Assembly: GCF_041886205.1 (NCBI RefSeq)
Contig: NZ_CP169029.1
DNA from: Escherichia coli
GTDB taxonomy: Bacteria; Pseudomonadota; Gammaproteobacteria; Enterobacterales; Enterobacteriaceae
Direction: 5' to 3' (one strand)
Length of the DNA stretch: 64,000 nucleotides
Within the stretch, counting starts at the first letter, position 1. Each line of letters begins with the position of its first letter. The notes below the pieces were generated by a model, which worked only from the letters and a program-made list of their open reading frames with translations, did not search any database and had not been told where the DNA came from. Shown here in pieces: positions 1 through 55,368 of the stretch. The translations under genes and the position numbers were made by a program.

Positions 1-1000
1 CGACAAAGGGTTCGCGCACGCCATTCCAGTCAAATGAACTGTTGAGGATCGCTTCGGCAGTGTCACCATTGGGATATTGATCGGTCCAGTGGCGTTGTCC
101 CTGGAAGCCCGCAGCGATGGCGTTGTAGCCAAGTGATTCTTCCACGCGACCAATATCGGCCAGTTTGCTGTTGCCTTGCATCATGTCGCGGATACACATC
201 GCCATCAGTAAACTTTCGCGCAGAACTGCGCGGCTTTGCTCGGCATTGCGTTGATACTGTTTGTTATTTTCATCTTCGCCGTAGCGGAAGTTTTTATCAG
301 CCCAGGCCAGCGCCATTTCCAGTTCGGCTTCGTCGTAAATCTTCTGATCGATACGGCGACGCAGTTCGGTCATATCCACCGCCTGGACTTTCATTCCCAG
401 CCAGGATTCAAAGAAGTTGTGATCAACGATGGAACCAGCGATACCCATCGAAACGCCGCCCAGCGACAGATAGCTTTTACCTTTCATGCTGGCGACTGCC
501 AAACCGGCGCGGGCAAAGCGCAGCAGTTTTTCTTCAACATCGGCTGGAATCGATGTGTCATCGGCATCCTGAACGTCATGACCGTAAATGGAGAATGCCG
601 GGATGCCTTTCTGGCTGTGAGCTGCCAGAGCCGCTGCCAGGTAAACAGCGCCGGGACGTTCAGTGCCGTTAAAGCCCCAAATGGCTTTCGGGCGGGTTGG
701 ATCCATGTCGATGGTTTCACTGCCATAGCACCAGCAAGGCGTTACCGTAATGGTGAGGCCTACATTCTGGCTGCTGAATTTTTCTTCGCAAGCAGCGGCT
801 TCAGCCATACCCGCGATACAGGTATCGGAAATGACACACTCGACGGCAGCTCCGCAGGCATGGCGCAGTTTCTCGGTCAGCAGTGTGGCCGTGGCTTTCG
901 CCATATTCATTGTTTGTTCTTCAAGCGACTCACGAACACCCATGCGACGACCGTCAATAACCGGGCGGATACCAATTTTCGGTAACGTATTAATTTTCAT
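1..1000 (-). CDS. fucI: L-fucose isomerase, 5' part only (gene continues beyond window start)
   Basis: Reverse-complement translation from ATG at 1000 gives [33 protein letters not shown]..., matching FucI; GAGG RBS upstream; no in-frame stop before window edge. Confidence 0.85.
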
Positions 1001-1082
1001 CAGGATTCCTCATCTCGCTTTATTGGCGCTCTGCTAAGGCGGAGAAAGGAAACCACCGAAGCAGTAGTATTGGTCATTATTT

Positions 1083-1098
1083 GCTAACTCGAGTTAGC
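1083..1098. promoter_or_regulatory. Perfect 16-bp palindrome GCTAACTCGAGTTAGC, candidate operator (copy 1)
   Basis: Self-complementary 16-mer in the fucI / ABC-transporter divergent intergenic region; identical copy at 1322-1337. Confidence 0.35.
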
Positions 1099-1321
1099 TT
1101 AGGTTTGTAGGCTTTTTATGCACAACTTTTTTGTTGTTGAAATGTGAGGGGCTTCACGAGAAGTGGTTAAAATACGATCTCTGTCAAATTATTATTTAGC
1201 GGGAGAAAAATAAATTTTACGTATAATCATATGGTTATTAGATTTTAATGGTTATGCATCACAGTTTTAACTCAAATGATTTGGCTAATTTGTATACCTA
1301 AAATAGCTTTAAAAGGCGATC

Positions 1322-1337
1322 GCTAACTCGAGTTAGC
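1322..1337. promoter_or_regulatory. Perfect 16-bp palindrome GCTAACTCGAGTTAGC, candidate operator (copy 2)
   Basis: Identical to 1083-1098; about 130 bp upstream of the ABC ATPase start. Confidence 0.35.
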
Positions 1338-1469
1338 AAAATGCGAAGAATAGATTGATGCGATGAATATTTATTCAAAGGTTATTCGTATCACAGTGGA
1401 GATGGCTTTAGTAGCGACGTTTATGCCGTACTTCACATTTTCAGTTTCTGATTATTGAGGAAAGCTGCA

Positions 1470-2969
1470 ATGTCCGAAACATTTTTGCAAATGAAGCATA
1501 TCACCAAACGCTTTCCTGGAGTGTTGGCGCTTAATGACGTGCAATTTTCCCTACGCCGGGGCGAGGTTCATGCATTATTAGGTGAAAATGGTGCAGGAAA
1601 ATCTACCTTAATGAAAATTTTGTCGGGGGTTTATCAACCTGATGAAGGCGAAATAATTTTTGAAGATAAACCAGTCTCATTTTCTGATCCGTTAAGTGCG
1701 CAAAACGTAGGTATTACTATTATTCACCAGGAATTTAATTTATTTCCCGAGCTTACAGTAGAAGAAAATATTTTTATCGGCAGGGAGTTTTGTAAAAAAA
1801 ATCGCTGGCGTCTGGATGAAAAACAGCAACGCCAGGCGACGATTGAAATTTTGCAAAAATTAAATTTGGCGATCAAACCAGATACTCTGGTTGCCGACCT
1901 TACGGTAGCTCAGCAGCAGATGGTAGAAATTGCCAAGGCCATTTCAGTTAACGCCAGGATTCTCATTATGGATGAACCTACTGCGGCGTTAACAGAAACT
2001 GAAATTGAAAGCTTATTTCGCGTCACCCGGTTATTGAAAGAGCAGGGGACCGGCATTGTTTATATCTCCCACCGTCTGGAAGAGTTGGCGCTAATTGCCG
2101 ACCGTGCGACTGTAATGCGTGATGGTCAGTACATCAGCACGGTGGATTATGAGTGCGTAAAAATCAGCGATCTGATTGCCATGATGGTTGGTCGCGATTT
2201 AGGGAATATCTATCCCCGCCGCGAGGCCTTGCAGCAGCGGATTCCGGTTCTGGAGGTAAACGGACTGACGCGCAAAGGCGTCCTGAACGATATTAATTTT
2301 ACGCTTTATCGTGGCGAGATCCTCGGCTTTGCCGGACTGATGGGCGCGGGGCGTACTGAACTTGCGCGTGCGATTTTTGGTGCGGATTCTATTGACAGCG
2401 GAACGCTAAAATTAAATGGTAAGGAAACCGTTATTAAAGATATTTCGGATGCTATTCAGCAGGGAATTAGTTACCTGACGGAAGACCGCAAAAAAGAAGG
2501 GCTGGCGCTGAATTTATCTGTTGAACGAAATATTATGTTAGGAAACTACCCTGAATATTCCGATCGTTTTGGGAATGTCGATTCGCGTCGTTGCCAACAA
2601 ACCAGTGAGGAACAGGTAAAAGCGTTAAGGATTAAAACGCCAAATCTTGAACAGGCGGCATTAAATCTAAGTGGAGGAAACCAGCAGAAAATTATAATTG
2701 CACGTTGGGTGTGTAAAGATACTGATATTTTAATCTTCGATGAACCCACTCGCGGCATTGATGTTGGCGCCAAACTGGAAATCTATGAGTTAATGAATCG
2801 CCTGGTGGCAAAAGGGAAATCAATCATCATGATCTCCTCTGAATTGCCTGAGGTGTTAGGAATGTGCGACCGTATTTTAGTGATGCGCAGTGGTCGAATT
2901 ACCGGCGAACTTAGCGCAAAAGAAGCGACACAAGAAAAAATTATGCAATACGCGACGTTAGAGGATTAA
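1470..2969 (+). CDS. Sugar ABC transporter ATP-binding protein, two fused ABC domains (RbsA/XylG-like)
   Basis: ORF with Walker A GENGAGKST and second ABC domain; ATG 1470 with GAGG RBS (ORF track starts at TTG 1455). Confidence 0.85.
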   Translation: MSETFLQMKHITKRFPGVLALNDVQFSLRRGEVHALLGENGAGKSTLMKILSGVYQPDEGEIIFEDKPVSFSDPLSAQNVGITIIHQEFNLFPELTVEENIFIGREFCKKNRWRLDEKQQRQATIEILQKLNLAIKPDTLVADLTVAQQQMVEIAKAISVNARILIMDEPTAALTETEIESLFRVTRLLKEQGTGIVYISHRLEELALIADRATVMRDGQYISTVDYECVKISDLIAMMVGRDLGNIYPRREALQQRIPVLEVNGLTRKGVLNDINFTLYRGEILGFAGLMGAGRTELARAIFGADSIDSGTLKLNGKETVIKDISDAIQQGISYLTEDRKKEGLALNLSVERNIMLGNYPEYSDRFGNVDSRRCQQTSEEQVKALRIKTPNLEQAALNLSGGNQQKIIIARWVCKDTDILIFDEPTRGIDVGAKLEIYELMNRLVAKGKSIIMISSELPEVLGMCDRILVMRSGRITGELSAKEATQEKIMQYATLED

Positions 2970-2972
2970 ATT

Positions 2973-3956
2973 ATGACTATCTCTGTAACCTCTCCAGACA
3001 GTAATAATAAGAAAATAAAGATAAATAAAGAACTTTTGATGCGTCTTGCGCCTCTTTTTAGCTTAATTATATTAGTGCTGTTTTTTAGTTTCAGCTCTCC
3101 CTTTTTCTTTAATACCGAAAATATCATGACGATTGCTCTGCAAACGTCGGTTATCGGCATTATGGCCATTGGGGTAACTTTCGTCATTATTACCGCGGGC
3201 ATCGATCTTTCATTGGGCTCCGTGGTGGCTTTTTCTGGTGTCGCCGTGGGGATTTGCGCCACACTGGGCCTGCCGCTGCCAGTGTGTATTATTGCCGGTG
3301 TTTTAGCCGGTGGAATGTGCGGCTATGTGAATGGTTTGTTGGTCACTAAAATGACCATTCCACCATTTATCGCTACCTTGGGCCTGATGATGTCCGTCAG
3401 AGGTATCAATATGGTGATGACCGACGGGCGCGCCATCTATTTTGCCGATTACCCGATGTTCAAAACGCTCGCTCAGGGACGCTTATTTGATGTGCTGCCT
3501 TATCCTGTTTTCTACCTTGTCATTGTAGCGCTTGTCGGCGCTTACATCCTGAAGAAAACCGTCATTGGTCGCTATGTCTATGCCGTAGGCAGTAATGAAG
3601 TTGCTGCTCATCTTTCTGGTATTAAAGTTCAGCGCGTGAAAATTTTCGTCTATGCCTTCTGTGGATTATTAACGGGGATTGCAGGTGTCATTCTGGCATC
3701 TCGTCTCAACTCCGGACAACCGACGGTAGGTGTGGGTTATGAACTGGAAGCTATTGCCGCGGTAGTGATTGGCGGAACCAGCTTAATGGGCGGTATTGGC
3801 ACTATTGGCGGCACAATCATTGGCGCTTTCATTATGAGTGTACTGAAAAATGGCCTCAATTTAATGGGCGTCTCCCAGTTCTGGCAAATGGTCGCGATGG
3901 GCGTCGTTGTGGTCGCTGCCGTTTACCTCGATACATTACGCAAAAAGATTCGTTGA
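2973..3956 (+). CDS. Sugar ABC transporter permease (RbsC-like)
   Basis: 327-aa hydrophobic multi-TM protein; ATG 4 nt after ATPase stop; GAGGA RBS. Confidence 0.85.
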   Translation: MTISVTSPDSNNKKIKINKELLMRLAPLFSLIILVLFFSFSSPFFFNTENIMTIALQTSVIGIMAIGVTFVIITAGIDLSLGSVVAFSGVAVGICATLGLPLPVCIIAGVLAGGMCGYVNGLLVTKMTIPPFIATLGLMMSVRGINMVMTDGRAIYFADYPMFKTLAQGRLFDVLPYPVFYLVIVALVGAYILKKTVIGRYVYAVGSNEVAAHLSGIKVQRVKIFVYAFCGLLTGIAGVILASRLNSGQPTVGVGYELEAIAAVVIGGTSLMGGIGTIGGTIIGAFIMSVLKNGLNLMGVSQFWQMVAMGVVVVAAVYLDTLRKKIR

Positions 3957-46077: not shown

Positions 46078-46350
46078 GAGTTCCCCGCGCCAGCGGGGAT
46101 AAACCGTTCGCTGGCAATCCACTCAGGAATTTCGGGAAGAGTTCCCCGCGCCAGCGGGGATAAACCGGGCAGTACCGACATGGACGGTCACCACGAGTTG
46201 AGTTCCCCGCGCCAGCGGGGATAAACCGTGTATAGCGCCAAAATTGACGAAAGACATGTTGAGTTCCCCGCGCCAGCGGGGATAAACCGGTTGTAGCTGA
46301 CAATGTAAATCATGGATTTACGAGTTCCCCGTGCCAGCGGGGATAACCAT
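46078..46350 (+). CRISPR. Type I-E CRISPR array: 5 repeats (last degenerate), 4 spacers of 32 nt
   Basis: 29-bp repeat GAGTTCCCCGCGCCAGCGGGGATAAACCG at 46078, 46139, 46200, 46261; degenerate GAGTTCCCCGTGCCAGCGGGGATAACCAT at 46322. Confidence 0.95.
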
Positions 46351-46360
46351 TCAGGTATGT

Positions 46361-46930
46361 TCAGGCCGGGCAGTTTCCCGCCCGGCCTTCCTCACTTACG
46401 CATTCGACCAGCTCTGGATCGAATCCGCATTCCCCATGCATCACTTCATACGATTTTTTCAGTATTACATCATTATGTTTGGTTAGGTCTTTGAAAATGC
46501 CTTTATTCATCGCGTCGTAGCGTTTGGCATTGCTCTCAATCGGTATAAAGATATCTTTCACGCGAACCATTTTGTCGACAGCCGTTGCGTAATCCGGGTA
46601 TAGTCCCAGACCTACCGCCGTATTAATCGCTGCCCCCAGACTTGCACAACCGTTAATGGCGTTACGTCGTGCCGGAAGGTTGAACATGTCGGCAAAAATC
46701 TGCATAAACAGATCGCTGTTCGAACCGCCGCCAGTAATGATCACATGCTTTGCAAAGTGATTCATTTCATTACGCATATTGTCGTAATTGTTCTTCAGCG
46801 TCAGAGCCACGCTTTCCAGTATCGAACGATATATCCATGCGTAACGCGCAAGCGCTGCCTGCAATACCGGCACCAATAATAATAATGTCGCAGTCATCTT
46901 CCGTGTCATACCCCAAATATCCAGACTCAA
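46361..46930 (-). pseudogene. ygcE: 3' remnant of an FGGY sugar kinase gene (ygcE-like), 5' part deleted
   Basis: C-terminal FGGY motifs (ARYAWIYRSILESVALTL..., IITGGGSNSDLFMQIFADMFNLPARR) in a 189-codon ORF; a full FGGY kinase is about 490 aa; N-terminal 30 residues look out of frame. Confidence 0.65.
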
Positions 46931-46980: not shown

Positions 46981-47346
46981 TCATTCGCCGCGATAGATAC
47001 AACCTGCGGTGCAGGTTTCTTTTACCATCACCGCACTTAACAGCGGCACAACGGGTTTAACCTGATCCCAAATCCATTTTGCTAAAACTTCGCTGGTTGG
47101 GTTTTCCAGACCTGGAATATCATTGAGATAATGGTGATCGAGGCGCTCGTAGGTTGGCTTAAACGCCGCTTTCAGTTCAGCGAAATCGATAATCCAGCCC
47201 GTATGCGGATCGACTTCCCCGGTAATTTCCAGTCGCACCATAAAGGAATGCCCGTGCAGGCGACCACATTTATGCCCTTCCGGGACGTGTGGTAAGCGGT
47301 GAGCGGCTTCGAAGGTGAAATCTTTAAATAACGTGGTGGACATCAT
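46981..47346 (-). CDS. queD: 6-carboxy-5,6,7,8-tetrahydropterin synthase
   Basis: 121 aa from [34 protein letters not shown]; ORF track start 47430 is an upstream extension. Confidence 0.9.
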
Positions 47347-52245: not shown

Positions 52246-52398
52246 ATGCTGACAAAATATGCCCTTGTGGCAATCATCGTACTGTGTTGTACAGTACTGG
52301 GATTCACGCTGATGGTAGGCGACTCGTTGTGTGAGTTGAGTATCAGAGAACGTGGTATGGAGTTTAAGGCAGTTCTCGCTTACGAATCGAAGAAGTAG
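52246..52398 (+). CDS. Hok/Gef-family type I toxin (hokX-like locus)
   Basis: 50-aa [53 protein letters not shown]: N-terminal TM helix plus conserved C-terminal LCE..IR....E.A..AYES pattern of Hok proteins. Confidence 0.7.
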
Positions 52399-52635
52399 CC
52401 ACCACGCGGGGGGTAAAATCCCGCGTACTGAATTGTGATGGTTTGGTCTCCTGCACCCTTTTTAATTTATATTGTTTATGTGAATATTATGCCTGTGTTT
52501 ATTATTTATATGTTTTATAGATGAAAACCATTGAATTATTCACAATGTAAATATTTTAATGAACGATATATATCACAGATAATTTTTAATATATGCGTAA
52601 ATATCCTTTAAGTTTTACGAAAGGATAAAAACATT

Positions 52636-54063
52636 GTGACTTTCTTTGATTTCTGGGGAAAAAACCGACGCGGCGAGAAAGAGGGCGGCGACGACTATCA
52701 TCTACTTTGCTGGCATTCGCTGGATGTAGCCGCGATGGGCTATTTAATGGTTAAAAGCAATTGCTTCGGGCTGGCTGACTATTTTCGTCAACTAGGTTTC
52801 GATGATACGGAGCAGGCAGCACAATTTTTCGCCTGGCTATTGTGCTGGCACGATATTGGAAAATTTGCCCGCTCTTTTCAGCAACTTTATCTGCATCCAC
52901 AACTCAAGGTTCCGGAAGGCGCAAGAAAAAATAACGAAAAGATCTCTCATTCAACGCTGGGTTACTGGTTGTGGAATCATTATTTAATTGAATGTGACGA
53001 GTTGCTTCCTTCCTCTTCACTCTCTCCCCGCAAACTTAAACGGGTAATAGCGATGTGGATGCCCATGAGCACGGGGCATCATGGTCGCCCACCTGACCGT
53101 ATTGATGAACTGGATAATTTTCTGCCTGAAGACAAAGTTGCCGCGCGAGATTTTCTCCTTGAAATCAAGTCACTGTTCCCGCTCATAGAGATCCCCACAT
53201 TCTGGGATGATGACGAGGACGTTGAACTTATAAAACAACTTTCCTGGTATATCTCTGCAACCGTCGTACTTGCAGACTGGACAGGATCGTCAACGAGATT
53301 TTTTCCACGCGTCGCACACCCAATGGATATTAAAGATTACTGGCAGAAGGCTTTAGTGCAGGCTCAAAACGCCTTAACCGTCTTTCCTCCAAAAGCAGAA
53401 ACCGCACCTTTCACCGGAATTAATACACTGTTTCCTTTTATTGAGAATCCGACACCGTTACAGCAAAAGGTGCTGGAACTGGATATCAGCCGGCCCGGGC
53501 CACAGTTATTTATTCTGGAGGATGTAACCGGCGCAGGTAAAACAGAAGCGGCGCTTATCCTGGCGCACAGGTTGATAGCTGCGGGGAAAGCTCAGGGGCT
53601 GTTTTTTGGTCTGCCAACAATGGCAACGGCCAATGCCATGTACGATCGGCTGGTCAAAACCTGGCTTGCTTTCTATTCGCCAGAATCCCGCCCCAGCCTG
53701 GTGCTGGCACACAGTGCCCGCACATTAATGGACCGCTTTAATGACTCACTCTGGTCCGGTGATTTAGTCGGGTCAGAAGAACCGGATGAACAAACGTTCA
53801 GTCAGGGATGTGCAGCCTGGTTTGCCGACAGTAACAAGAAGGCTTTACTGGCTGAAATTGGCGTCGGCACGCTGGATCAGGCGATGATGGCAGTGATGCC
53901 GTTTAAACATAATAATCTGCGGCTTCTGGGGTTGAGTAACAAAATCCTGCTGGCTGATGAGATCCACGCCTGTGACGCTTACATGTCGTGCATTCTTGAA
54001 GGGCTGATCGAGCGGCAGGCGCGTGGCGGAAACAGCGTTATTTTGCTTTCTGCTACGTTATCT
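52636..54063 (+). pseudogene. cas3: 5' fragment of type I-E cas3 (HD nuclease domain and helicase motifs I-III), truncated at a CRISPR repeat
   Basis: HD motif (CWHDIGKF), Walker A (TGAGKTEA), DExH (LLADEIHACD), SAT (LLSATLS); reading frame then runs directly into the repeat at 54064; about 476 codons, roughly half of a full cas3. Confidence 0.8.
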
Positions 54064-54214
54064 GTGTTCCCCGCGCCAGCGGGGATAAACCGCCATTCTT
54101 GTTGTCGTTCATCAAGCGCAGGGGGTGTTCCCCGCGCCAGCGGGGATAAACCGGGTAAATAACACAGCGTTTGAAACAGGCAAAAGTGTTCCCCGCGCCA
54201 GCGGGGATAAACCG
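54064..54214 (+). CRISPR. Type I-E CRISPR array remnant: 3 repeats, 2 spacers, no leader
   Basis: GTGTTCCCCGCGCCAGCGGGGATAAACCG at 54064, 54125, 54186 with 32-nt spacers; directly abuts the cas3 fragment. Confidence 0.92.
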
Positions 54215-54330
54215 GCGCAATACGGTGCGGTTTTCCCGGAAGTAAACCGGGCGCACTGGATGCGATGATGGGTATGACTTAGAATTCCCCGCCCCTGCGG
54301 TAGAACTCCCAGCTCCCATTTTCAAACTCC

Positions 54331-55368
54331 TCAAGACGCCTTCGCCAGCTCCTTCACCAGCGGTAGCATTATCCGCATAACATCACGGCAGCGACGTTCT
54401 ATTCTTCCAGGAAGTGCCTTATCAATATGTTGTTGATTATCCAGTCTTACGTCATGCCAGCTATTTCCCGCCGGGAAGGCAGGTGTTTTTGCGCGTTGCT
54501 GATAACCATCCTTATTCCCAAGATTCCAGTTAGTCGCTTCCACCGAAAGTACAGCAATGCCCGCTTTGTCGAATATTTCTGCGTCATTACAACACCCAGT
54601 GCCTTTCGGATAATTTTTATTCAAACCCGGATTGGTCGTTGCGGCTATTCCGTGACTGCGCGCAATTGCCAGCGCCCTGTCGCGCGTTAATTTCCTTACT
54701 GCTTCAGGGGTTTTTACACCGCTGTTGAAATACAATTTATCGCCAACAATTAAGTTATCGAGATCAATCACCAGCAGCGTATTTTTCTTTTCGGTGTCAC
54801 TCATCCGCTTGAGTAAATTCTCAGCGCCTAATTTCCCTTCCTCTTCGCCGCTGGTCGCCACAAATCGAATACCATACTCGGTAGGCGTATTTTTCAGGCG
54901 TTCTGCCAGTTCCAGCATGACACCTAAACCTGCGGCGTTATCATCCATTCCTTGTAACGTCAGCCCGCCGAGATTGGCATCGGCGTCAGCATCGCTCAGC
55001 GGGGCGTAAGTATCCAGATGCGCCATAATGATGATCTGCTGCGGCGCTTTGCCTTCATGAGCGGCAATCACCGTACTTCCTGTCACGTTATGCCAGTTCT
55101 TGCGATTATCGCGGGCGGTATAAATATACCGACTATTAAATGTCCGAATATCACTGCGATAACCCATTTGCTGAAACTGTTGGCGAATATAATCGGCAGA
55201 TAACATTTCTGCAGGAGTTCCGGTCATGCGTCCCGGAAAGAAAGTAGCAATATGTCGTGCCTGAGTATTAGCAAAATCGCCAGGTTTAGGTAACGAGGCG
55301 TGTACGGGGAGAATAAAGCATACGCCGAGCGCCAGGGCAGCGGTACGGTGGCGCAATGCGGAAAACAT
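54331..55368 (-). CDS. iap: Alkaline phosphatase isozyme conversion aminopeptidase
   Basis: 345 aa with signal peptide, M28 peptidase-like. Confidence 0.9.
   Translation of the reverse strand: MFSALRHRTAALALGVCFILPVHASLPKPGDFANTQARHIATFFPGRMTGTPAEMLSADYIRQQFQQMGYRSDIRTFNSRYIYTARDNRKNWHNVTGSTVIAAHEGKAPQQIIIMAHLDTYAPLSDADADANLGGLTLQGMDDNAAGLGVMLELAERLKNTPTEYGIRFVATSGEEEGKLGAENLLKRMSDTEKKNTLLVIDLDNLIVGDKLYFNSGVKTPEAVRKLTRDRALAIARSHGIAATTNPGLNKNYPKGTGCCNDAEIFDKAGIAVLSVEATNWNLGNKDGYQQRAKTPAFPAGNSWHDVRLDNQQHIDKALPGRIERRCRDVMRIMLPLVKELAKAS

Follow-up and report, generated by a model that had tools for sequence, protein, structure and literature searches.

Loss of CRISPR-Cas systems is common in Escherichia coli and is explained mainly through recombination between insertion sequences (IS). 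Among the described systems, the locus considered here is closest to type I-E in its non-K-12 form, the 'E1' variant, which was described by Almendros et al. (2014, mBio; PMC3903273), who attributed the loss of the cas-E1 genes to IS186/ISu recombination. The locus lies in a stretch of 64,000 nucleotides (nt) of E. coli DNA (assembly GCF_041886205.1, contig NZ_CP169029.1), hereafter the window, where cysI and cysH are followed by a toxin gene of the hok family, an AT-rich region, a long open reading frame (ORF), CRISPR repeats and, on the opposite strand, iap. The long ORF comprises the 5' part of an E1-type cas3 gene, which runs directly, and exactly at a repeat boundary, into the repeats of a leaderless array.

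A deletion sets cas3 directly against nucleotide 1 of a CRISPR repeat

Among 5,426 complete E. coli genomes, the closest intact relative of the window locus is UTAK-6 (locus L001), which carries, in order, cysH, hok, cas3, casA, casB, cas7e, cas5e, cas6e, cas1e, cas2e, the leader, the array and iap. Comparison with UTAK-6 places the deletion junction at 54063..54064 (plus strand), where cas3 nt 1470 is joined to nt 1 of the repeat. The breakpoint is exact (…TTATCT/GTGTTCCCC, with the slash marking the joint): the window reads …CTGCTACGTTATCT/GTGTTCCCCGCGCC, compared to …CTGCTACGTTATCT/CAACAGCAGCGCGAC in intact cas3, and UTAK-6 reads …CGTTATCT/CAACAGCAG at the corresponding point. The 7,202 bp missing from the window (L001 12201-19402) comprise the 3' 46% of cas3, casA, casB, cas7, cas5, cas6e, cas1, cas2 and the entire leader. 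What is left of cas3, at 52593..54063 (plus strand), is a pseudogene remnant of the E1 variant that corresponds to nt 1-1470 of the ~2,700 nt of the gene (the 5' 54%), as identified by NCBIfam matches, alignment to intact alleles and the note of the NCBI Prokaryotic Genome Annotation Pipeline (PGAP) in strain 6EVA, which is identical to the window at this locus.

Between 54063 and iap at 54331 there is only an array, with no trace of the Cascade genes, cas1, cas2 or a leader, and the 6EVA annotation of the locus contains none of casA, casB, cas7, cas5, cas6e, cas1 and cas2. The AT-rich leader with its promoter and integration host factor (IHF) site is absent in front of repeat 1, the E1 leader (…GTATGCTTAGT) being replaced by cas3 coding sequence. 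An initial annotation, made from the letters of the window, had described the locus as a footprint of cas operon loss in which a cas3 5' fragment abuts a leaderless array, with the junction exactly on a repeat boundary; the 7,202 bp absent relative to UTAK-6 and the position of repeat nt 1 at 54064 bear this out. Its suggestion that the junction could reflect recombination between repeat-like sequences is, in contrast, not supported, given that intact cas3 contains no repeat-like sequence at the breakpoint (CAACAGCAGCGCGAC is unlike the repeat) and that the cas3 end and the leader end have at most one nucleotide (T) in common.

The published route of cas-E1 loss is IS186/ISu recombination (Almendros et al. 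2014, PMC3903273), and a loss of this kind could have proceeded here either by recombination between two IS copies or by excision of an IS that took flanking DNA with it. IS421/IS186-type elements are indeed common at the locus in other strains, and shortened loci of the K-12 type mostly carry an IS. The window, however, contains no IS or IS scar in 52400-54331 (neither a transposase ORF nor IS421/IS186-type ends), cas3 stands directly against the repeat, and the target of IS421/IS186-type elements is GGGG-N-CCCC rather than a repeat boundary. IS-mediated loss is therefore largely refuted for the window junction, and we consider it highly improbable.

The same repeat boundary terminates ten different deletions

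We surveyed genomes in which cas3 and iap are abnormally close to each other. Many independent deletions were found, including ten with different cas3 breakpoints in which the cas3 sequence continues precisely with repeat nt 1, namely that of the window (nt 1470) and nine further ones: nt 1196 (C11 and S6aCHROMc), nt 1486 (TCM3e1 and 7 others), nt 1555 (MS20657 and the N-series strains), nt 1569 (STEC379), nt 1671/2 (A20 and others), nt 1694 (RMDEC465), nt 2046/7 (JNE23-001, 88-3493 and WEC), nt 2167/8 (GF131) and nt 2458 (2020CK-00188). At 3 of the 10 junctions, a shared G leaves an ambiguity of one nucleotide. Altogether, 11 deletions with an end in an array were found, and 10 of them stop at the 5' boundary of a repeat; the probability of 10 out of 11 falling on one bond is ~1 × 10−14 if breakpoints are random over the 61-bp repeat-spacer unit. 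Because the genomes were selected by BLAST coverage and not by the shape of the junction, the recurrence of the boundary is not an ascertainment effect.

For two of the junction classes, the repeat can be identified as the leader-proximal one. In no fewer than 11 intact strains, the first spacer of STEC379 (TTGTGCGAACC…) comes immediately after the leader and the first repeat, and that of JNE23-001 (GCAATTTG…) is leader-proximal in 94EC, where cas1 and cas2 stand immediately 5' of that leader; the right breakpoint of these two deletions is thus the leader/repeat-1 bond. In C5, three different first spacers of the nt 2046/7 class follow each other consecutively, an order that fits a single origin of this class, with subsequent losses anchored at the junction repeat.

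There is no IS at any of the ten repeat-boundary junctions. The final T shared with the leader occurs at 4 of the 10 left ends, which is about the chance rate, and no microhomology beyond chance was detected. A model in which Chi sites determine the left ends was rejected: plus-strand Chi sequences are located at cas3 nt 2530 and in cas5/cas6e, and the nearest breakpoint (nt 2458) lies ~70 nt upstream. The recurrence of the boundary suggests that deletions of the cas operon break preferentially at the spacer-integration site. We found no description of cas3/repeat-boundary junctions in the literature searched, although several key E. coli CRISPR surveys were outside that search, so that a prior description is possible.

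Ordinary illegitimate deletion is a further candidate. Slippage during replication, alternative end-joining or an exchange mediated by gyrase would then have removed the DNA, chance or the local structure of the DNA would have placed the right end on the repeat boundary, and the integration machinery would have had no part in it. Deletions of an apparently ordinary type do exist at E. coli cas loci: a cas3(nt 1765)/cas7e joint with 2-nt microhomology is present in an apparently large clade, cas3/cas2 and casB/cas2 joints show TA, and a casA joint to the interior of a repeat, with ATA microhomology, resembles an ordinary deletion as well. Furthermore, ~360 of the 2,785 genomes with cas3-E1 DNA carry a partial gene (less than 80% of its length). 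Such processes do not readily account for the use of one phosphodiester, without microhomology, in 10 of 11 array-ending deletions; neither would a hairpin, because the repeat stem begins 5 nt inside the boundary, so that hairpin-directed breakage would not predict this position. We regard ordinary deletion as a distinctly improbable source of the window junction.

A proposed link between the deletion and the site of spacer integration

Adaptation in type I-E systems takes place at the leader/repeat-1 bond, where Cas1-Cas2, together with IHF, attaches the 3'-OH of a prespacer to the 5' end of the repeat next to the leader. The window locus is a dead CRISPR-Cas relic, and we tentatively favour, with somewhat less than even confidence, the reading that the joining that completed the deletion was tied to this leader/first-repeat integration bond. 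Under this reading, the single 7.2-kb deletion that brought cas3 nt 1470 onto repeat nt 1 would have arisen by non-homologous joining, the right end being set by the leader/first-repeat phosphodiester and the left end in cas3 being arbitrary. Two routes can be envisaged: the integrase might join a chromosomal 3' end inside cas3 to the leader/first-repeat bond, or an integration-site break at the leader/repeat bond might be repaired against a resected upstream end. By analogy with the normal integration reaction, we infer that Cas1-Cas2 chemistry may have been involved. The more specific proposition is that the cas3/repeat joints are traces naturally left by the integrase in the chromosome that encodes it: Cas1-Cas2, or a break that it introduces at the leader/repeat-1 bond, would connect an upstream chromosomal end to the first repeat, with the cas operon and the leader excised in one step. 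This proposition is in our judgement rather doubtful.

Several observations weigh against a role of the integration bond. In EC596 (L024 ~2000), the deletion runs from casA into a repeat, of which the last 5 nt are left, with ATA as the microhomology at the joint. No intact relative carries the spacers of the window lineage, so that the junction repeat of the window is not demonstrable as a first repeat. Among ~1,170 genomes of the K-12 type (E2), no clean equivalent of the cas3/repeat joint was found. A second fixed right end exists within cas2, at GGCTA/CTGGAAG (GGCTA/CTGGAAGTG; L001 ~19082), and the favoured model leaves it unexplained. Finally, we know of no experiment and no precedent in which Cas1-Cas2 joins a long chromosomal end.

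The cas2 point is reached from four different left ends, namely cas3 nt 1557, cas3 nt 2037, casB and casA (loci L007, L013, L023 and L025). The junctions that end there show TA or TAC microhomology, and the site is unlike the repeat. As a possible cause of this hot spot, homology shared by CRISPR2.3 and the cas2-leader region was considered and discarded, as none was found. In the cas3(nt 1765)/cas7e fusion (L020 8764; WCHEC035123 and related strains), casA and casB are lost whereas cas5, cas6, cas1, cas2, the leader and the array are kept; the sampled rows suggest that many of the genomes with partial cas3 belong to the large clade with this fusion. The repeat involved in EC596 is the second repeat of a C5-like array, and its deletion is the only array-ending one off the repeat 5' boundary.

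The anatomy of the junctions can also be obtained from recombination between a spacer and its protospacer. In this scenario, a leader-adjacent spacer derived from cas3, in direct orientation, recombines with its source through the 32-33 bp of homology and the interval is deleted, such that the product retains cas3 as far as the protospacer extends and then continues with what was formerly the first repeat. The route predicts what is observed, that is, the repeat 5' boundary, the leader-proximal repeat and the variable positions in cas3. It is also favoured by the facts that self-acquisition is especially frequent in the region 5' of an active array and that self-targeting selects for the loss of cas genes (reviewed in PMC6990116). 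However, an AWG protospacer adjacent motif (PAM) was present at the expected position in only 1 of the 10 junctions, against a background of 3.5% per position, and the window has GAA there (or GGA, if the spacer was 33 nt long). A precursor of the window junction with the structure repeat-cas3 32-mer-repeat was found in no genome, the best matches being repeat pairs at 89% identity, and a whole-gene search detected a second cas3 match in at most 7 of the 5,426 genomes; the sensitivity of these searches was limited by the 28-nt megablast word and by the restriction to complete genomes. Comparison of the 114 spacers of the fetched arrays to the E1 operon yielded chance matches of 11-14 nt only. 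Moreover, 32 bp is a poor RecA substrate, and the cas2 hot spot is unexplained by this route, too. Spacer-protospacer recombination thus appears unlikely to us; the boundary as such points to either this route or an integrase-linked deletion, and the data do not decide between the two.

A single lineage followed by decay

The very junction of the window, with cas3 nt 1470 joined to the repeat, is present in 11 of the 5,426 complete genomes, as the initial annotation had proposed to look for: AH02, AH04, CT01, CX08, CX12, VE-T9, LHM10-1, CP52E and XJ5.2, besides 6EVA and wlxctx60, each of which is identical to the window. Among the recorded hosts of these strains are humans, pig, cattle and an Asian black bear, and Singapore, Canada, Viet Nam and China are among the recorded origins. 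All 11 genomes have in common the first spacer (CCATTCTTG…) and a unique truncated unit, and their arrays vary only via internal spacer loss or duplication. From these sequences, the nt 1470 junction looks like the product of a single origin that was followed by spacer loss; change by loss and duplication only is what would be expected once Cas1-Cas2 is gone. No intact ancestor of the window array was found among the complete genomes searched, spacers 2-5 being confined to the 11 junction genomes, and as no other complete genome contains these spacers, the array as it was before the deletion is not reconstructable. The loss of a 'proximal array' claimed in the initial annotation is not demonstrable.

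The cas3 remnant and its upstream region

Helicase motifs I-III are retained in the remnant, as is the HD nuclease domain. The 476 codons at 52636-54063 match the NCBIfam Cas3 model PRK09694, covering positions 6-480 of its 878-position profile (E = 3 × 10−77), the cas3_HD and cas3_core domains are both matched, and the motifs HDIGKF (HD), GAGKT (I), DEIH (II) and SAT (III) are legible in the translation. The ORF that starts at 52636 was thus correctly recognized in the initial annotation as a 5' fragment of Cas3 with the HD motif and helicase motifs I, II and III. The PRK09694 score is 260 bits, compared to a full-length cut-off of 569, and the remnant falls short of a full-length Cas3 with HD nuclease, superfamily 2 (SF2) helicase and C-terminal domain; a score below the cut-off is expected for a fragment.

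Alignment to intact alleles shows that the true start of cas3 is the ATG at 52593 (intact E1 Cas3 begins MRKYPLSLLKDKNIVTFFDFWGK) and that the GTG at 52636 corresponds to codon 15 (Val15) of the intact protein. An additional T at 52613-52616 shifts the frame (+1) from the ATG at 52593, leading to a stop at 52626-52628; this insertion near the cas3 start is a second inactivating lesion, besides the truncation. The ORF list contains a mechanical ORF of 508 codons at 52636..54162 (plus strand), which starts at the GTG, crosses the first repeat, the first spacer and the second repeat, and stops at 54160-54162 in spacer 2. The 'in-frame fusion' of the initial annotation reads too much into this ORF: it does run into the repeat, but as a read-through of a pseudogene that is frameshifted near its real start, without biological meaning. 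PGAP labels the identical locus of 6EVA as a pseudogene ("frameshifted; incomplete; missing C-terminus").

Direct reading of the sequence confirms that the AT-rich intergenic region 5' of cas3 has been kept (52399..52592, plus strand), again in agreement with the initial annotation; it includes a GGGG-N-CCCC hairpin at ~52405-52425. At the homologous place in several strains, among them AR_0069, A20 and 100248, this hairpin 3' of hok is an insertion site of IS421/IS186-type elements, and the same element is also found within a GGGGGTTTTTCCCC-containing spacer of HSP425. The region is preceded by the hok-family type I toxin gene at 52246..52398 (plus strand; NCBIfam HokA/Hok family match, E = 2.6 × 10−14), a conserved left neighbour of E1-type cas3, and a Hok/Gef family protein is annotated at the homologous position in 6EVA and in every related locus.

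The residual array and the neighbouring CRISPR2.3

The core of the leaderless array, CRISPR2.1, occupies 54064..54214 (plus strand) and consists of three perfect copies of the 29-nt repeat GTGTTCCCCGCGCCAGCGGGGATAAACCG, for which the chance expectation is zero, at 54064-54092, 54125-54153 and 54186-54214, separated by spacers at 54093-54124 and 54154-54185. It is followed, at 54215..54249 (plus strand), by a 32-nt spacer (54215-54246) and CCG, the last 3 nt of its repeat. The repeat behind this spacer (GCGCAATACGG…GTAAA) is reduced by 26 nt to CCG, and this unit is exclusive to the 11 genomes with the nt 1470 junction; the loss, a 26-bp deletion at a TAAA microhomology, appears from the sequence to have been caused by slippage between TAAA at the spacer end and TAAA within the repeat. 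The array ends at 54250..54310 (plus strand) with the conserved oldest spacer (54250-54281) and the degenerate terminal repeat (54282-54310), a trailer with homologues in ~3,900 genomes, which adjoins the right neighbour iap (54331-55368, minus strand). With its 29-nt repeats, 32-nt spacers, oldest spacer and terminal repeat beside iap, the array is a type I-E array of the iap-proximal CRISPR2.1 kind. The oldest spacer has three differences (GGGTATGAC vs. GGATATCAC) from the form in the fetched intact and other cas-deleted E1 loci, which suggests that the lineage bearing the junction is relatively divergent.

The first spacer after the junction (CCATTCTTGTTGTCGTTCATCAAGCGCAGGGG, 54093-54124) is identical to an old CRISPR2.3 spacer of KE55 (L009 3455-3486). 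The match of CCATTCTTGTTGTCGTTCATCAAGCGCAGGGG spacer plus repeat recurs in many further strains, where it is flanked by repeats of the GAG type rather than the GTG type; independent acquisition and transfer between arrays are both possible. In the window, the second type I-E array (CRISPR2.3, with GAG-type repeats) is located at 46078-46350, only ~6 kb upstream of cas3 instead of ~19 kb. It is followed by a truncated ygcE fragment (46396-46843) and queD (46981-47343), the genes from yqcE through ygcN being apparently missing between the array and queD. On the other side, queE bears a frameshift according to the 6EVA annotation.

Function and implications

Judging by its gene content, the locus is nonfunctional as an immune system, with no leader promoter, Cas6e, Cascade, Cas1-Cas2 or intact Cas3. 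Because an own promoter, Cas6e, Cas1-Cas2 and the leader are all missing, the array would be neither transcribed from its own promoter nor processed, extended or used, and transcription from the cas3 promoter, which has been kept, would give at most a cas3'-repeat RNA that is left unprocessed. After the deletion, the array changed by nothing but repeat-repeat recombination and slippage, and the cas3 stub gained a frameshift. Taken alone, the locus is an ordinary product of decay that had already been flagged by automated annotation; the added value lies in the recurrent, nucleotide-exact breakpoint at the spacer-integration site.

The locus and its relatives point to a second, IS-free route of loss, in which the right end is tied to one phosphodiester, that at which spacers are integrated. 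Should the integrase or the lesions that it makes indeed be responsible, adaptation would entail a built-in risk of deleting its own system, which would bear on the frequency of silent or decayed type I-E systems in E. coli; this would be a recurrent, self-inflicted form of CRISPR-Cas loss that is distinct from both IS recombination and spacer-mediated homologous recombination. For typing purposes, a cas3 stub should not be counted as cas3-positive. Orphan arrays of this kind can serve as an archive of post-deletion decay, recording loss, duplication and slippage but no new spacers.

Comparison with known arrangements

The window locus shares with the intact E1 locus of UTAK-6 its chromosomal position, its neighbours, the hok gene and the 5' half of cas3, with ~94% identity in the long alignment from cysI to the breakpoint and 99% identity in the 200 nt of cas3 that immediately precede the breakpoint, as well as the same 29-nt repeat, the oldest spacer and the degenerate terminal repeat; it differs from UTAK-6 by the 7,202-bp deletion and the frameshifted start of cas3. 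Similarly to the cas-less arrangements of Almendros et al. 2014 (PMC3903273), the window has lost cas-E1 genes and the leader and has a residual array beside iap, whereas, unlike those arrangements, it contains no IS and retains half of cas3. The nucleotide-exact junction at the repeat 5' boundary is a feature of the window for which no description was found in PMC3903273.

The junction resembles the half-site product of Cas1-Cas2 integration in that a DNA 3' end would be placed on the 5' nucleotide of the repeat, the leader is displaced and homology would not be needed. It departs from that product in that the DNA joined would be the chromosome itself, rather than a 33-bp prespacer, and in that there is neither a new repeat copy nor a PAM signature. 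With the other partial cas operons of E. coli (cas3/cas7e, cas3/cas2, casB/cas2 and casA/cas2), the window has in common a left end in an early cas gene and the inactivation of the system; in contrast to the window, these other deletions end within cas genes, with 2-3-nt microhomology, and mostly keep the leader and often cas1-cas2.

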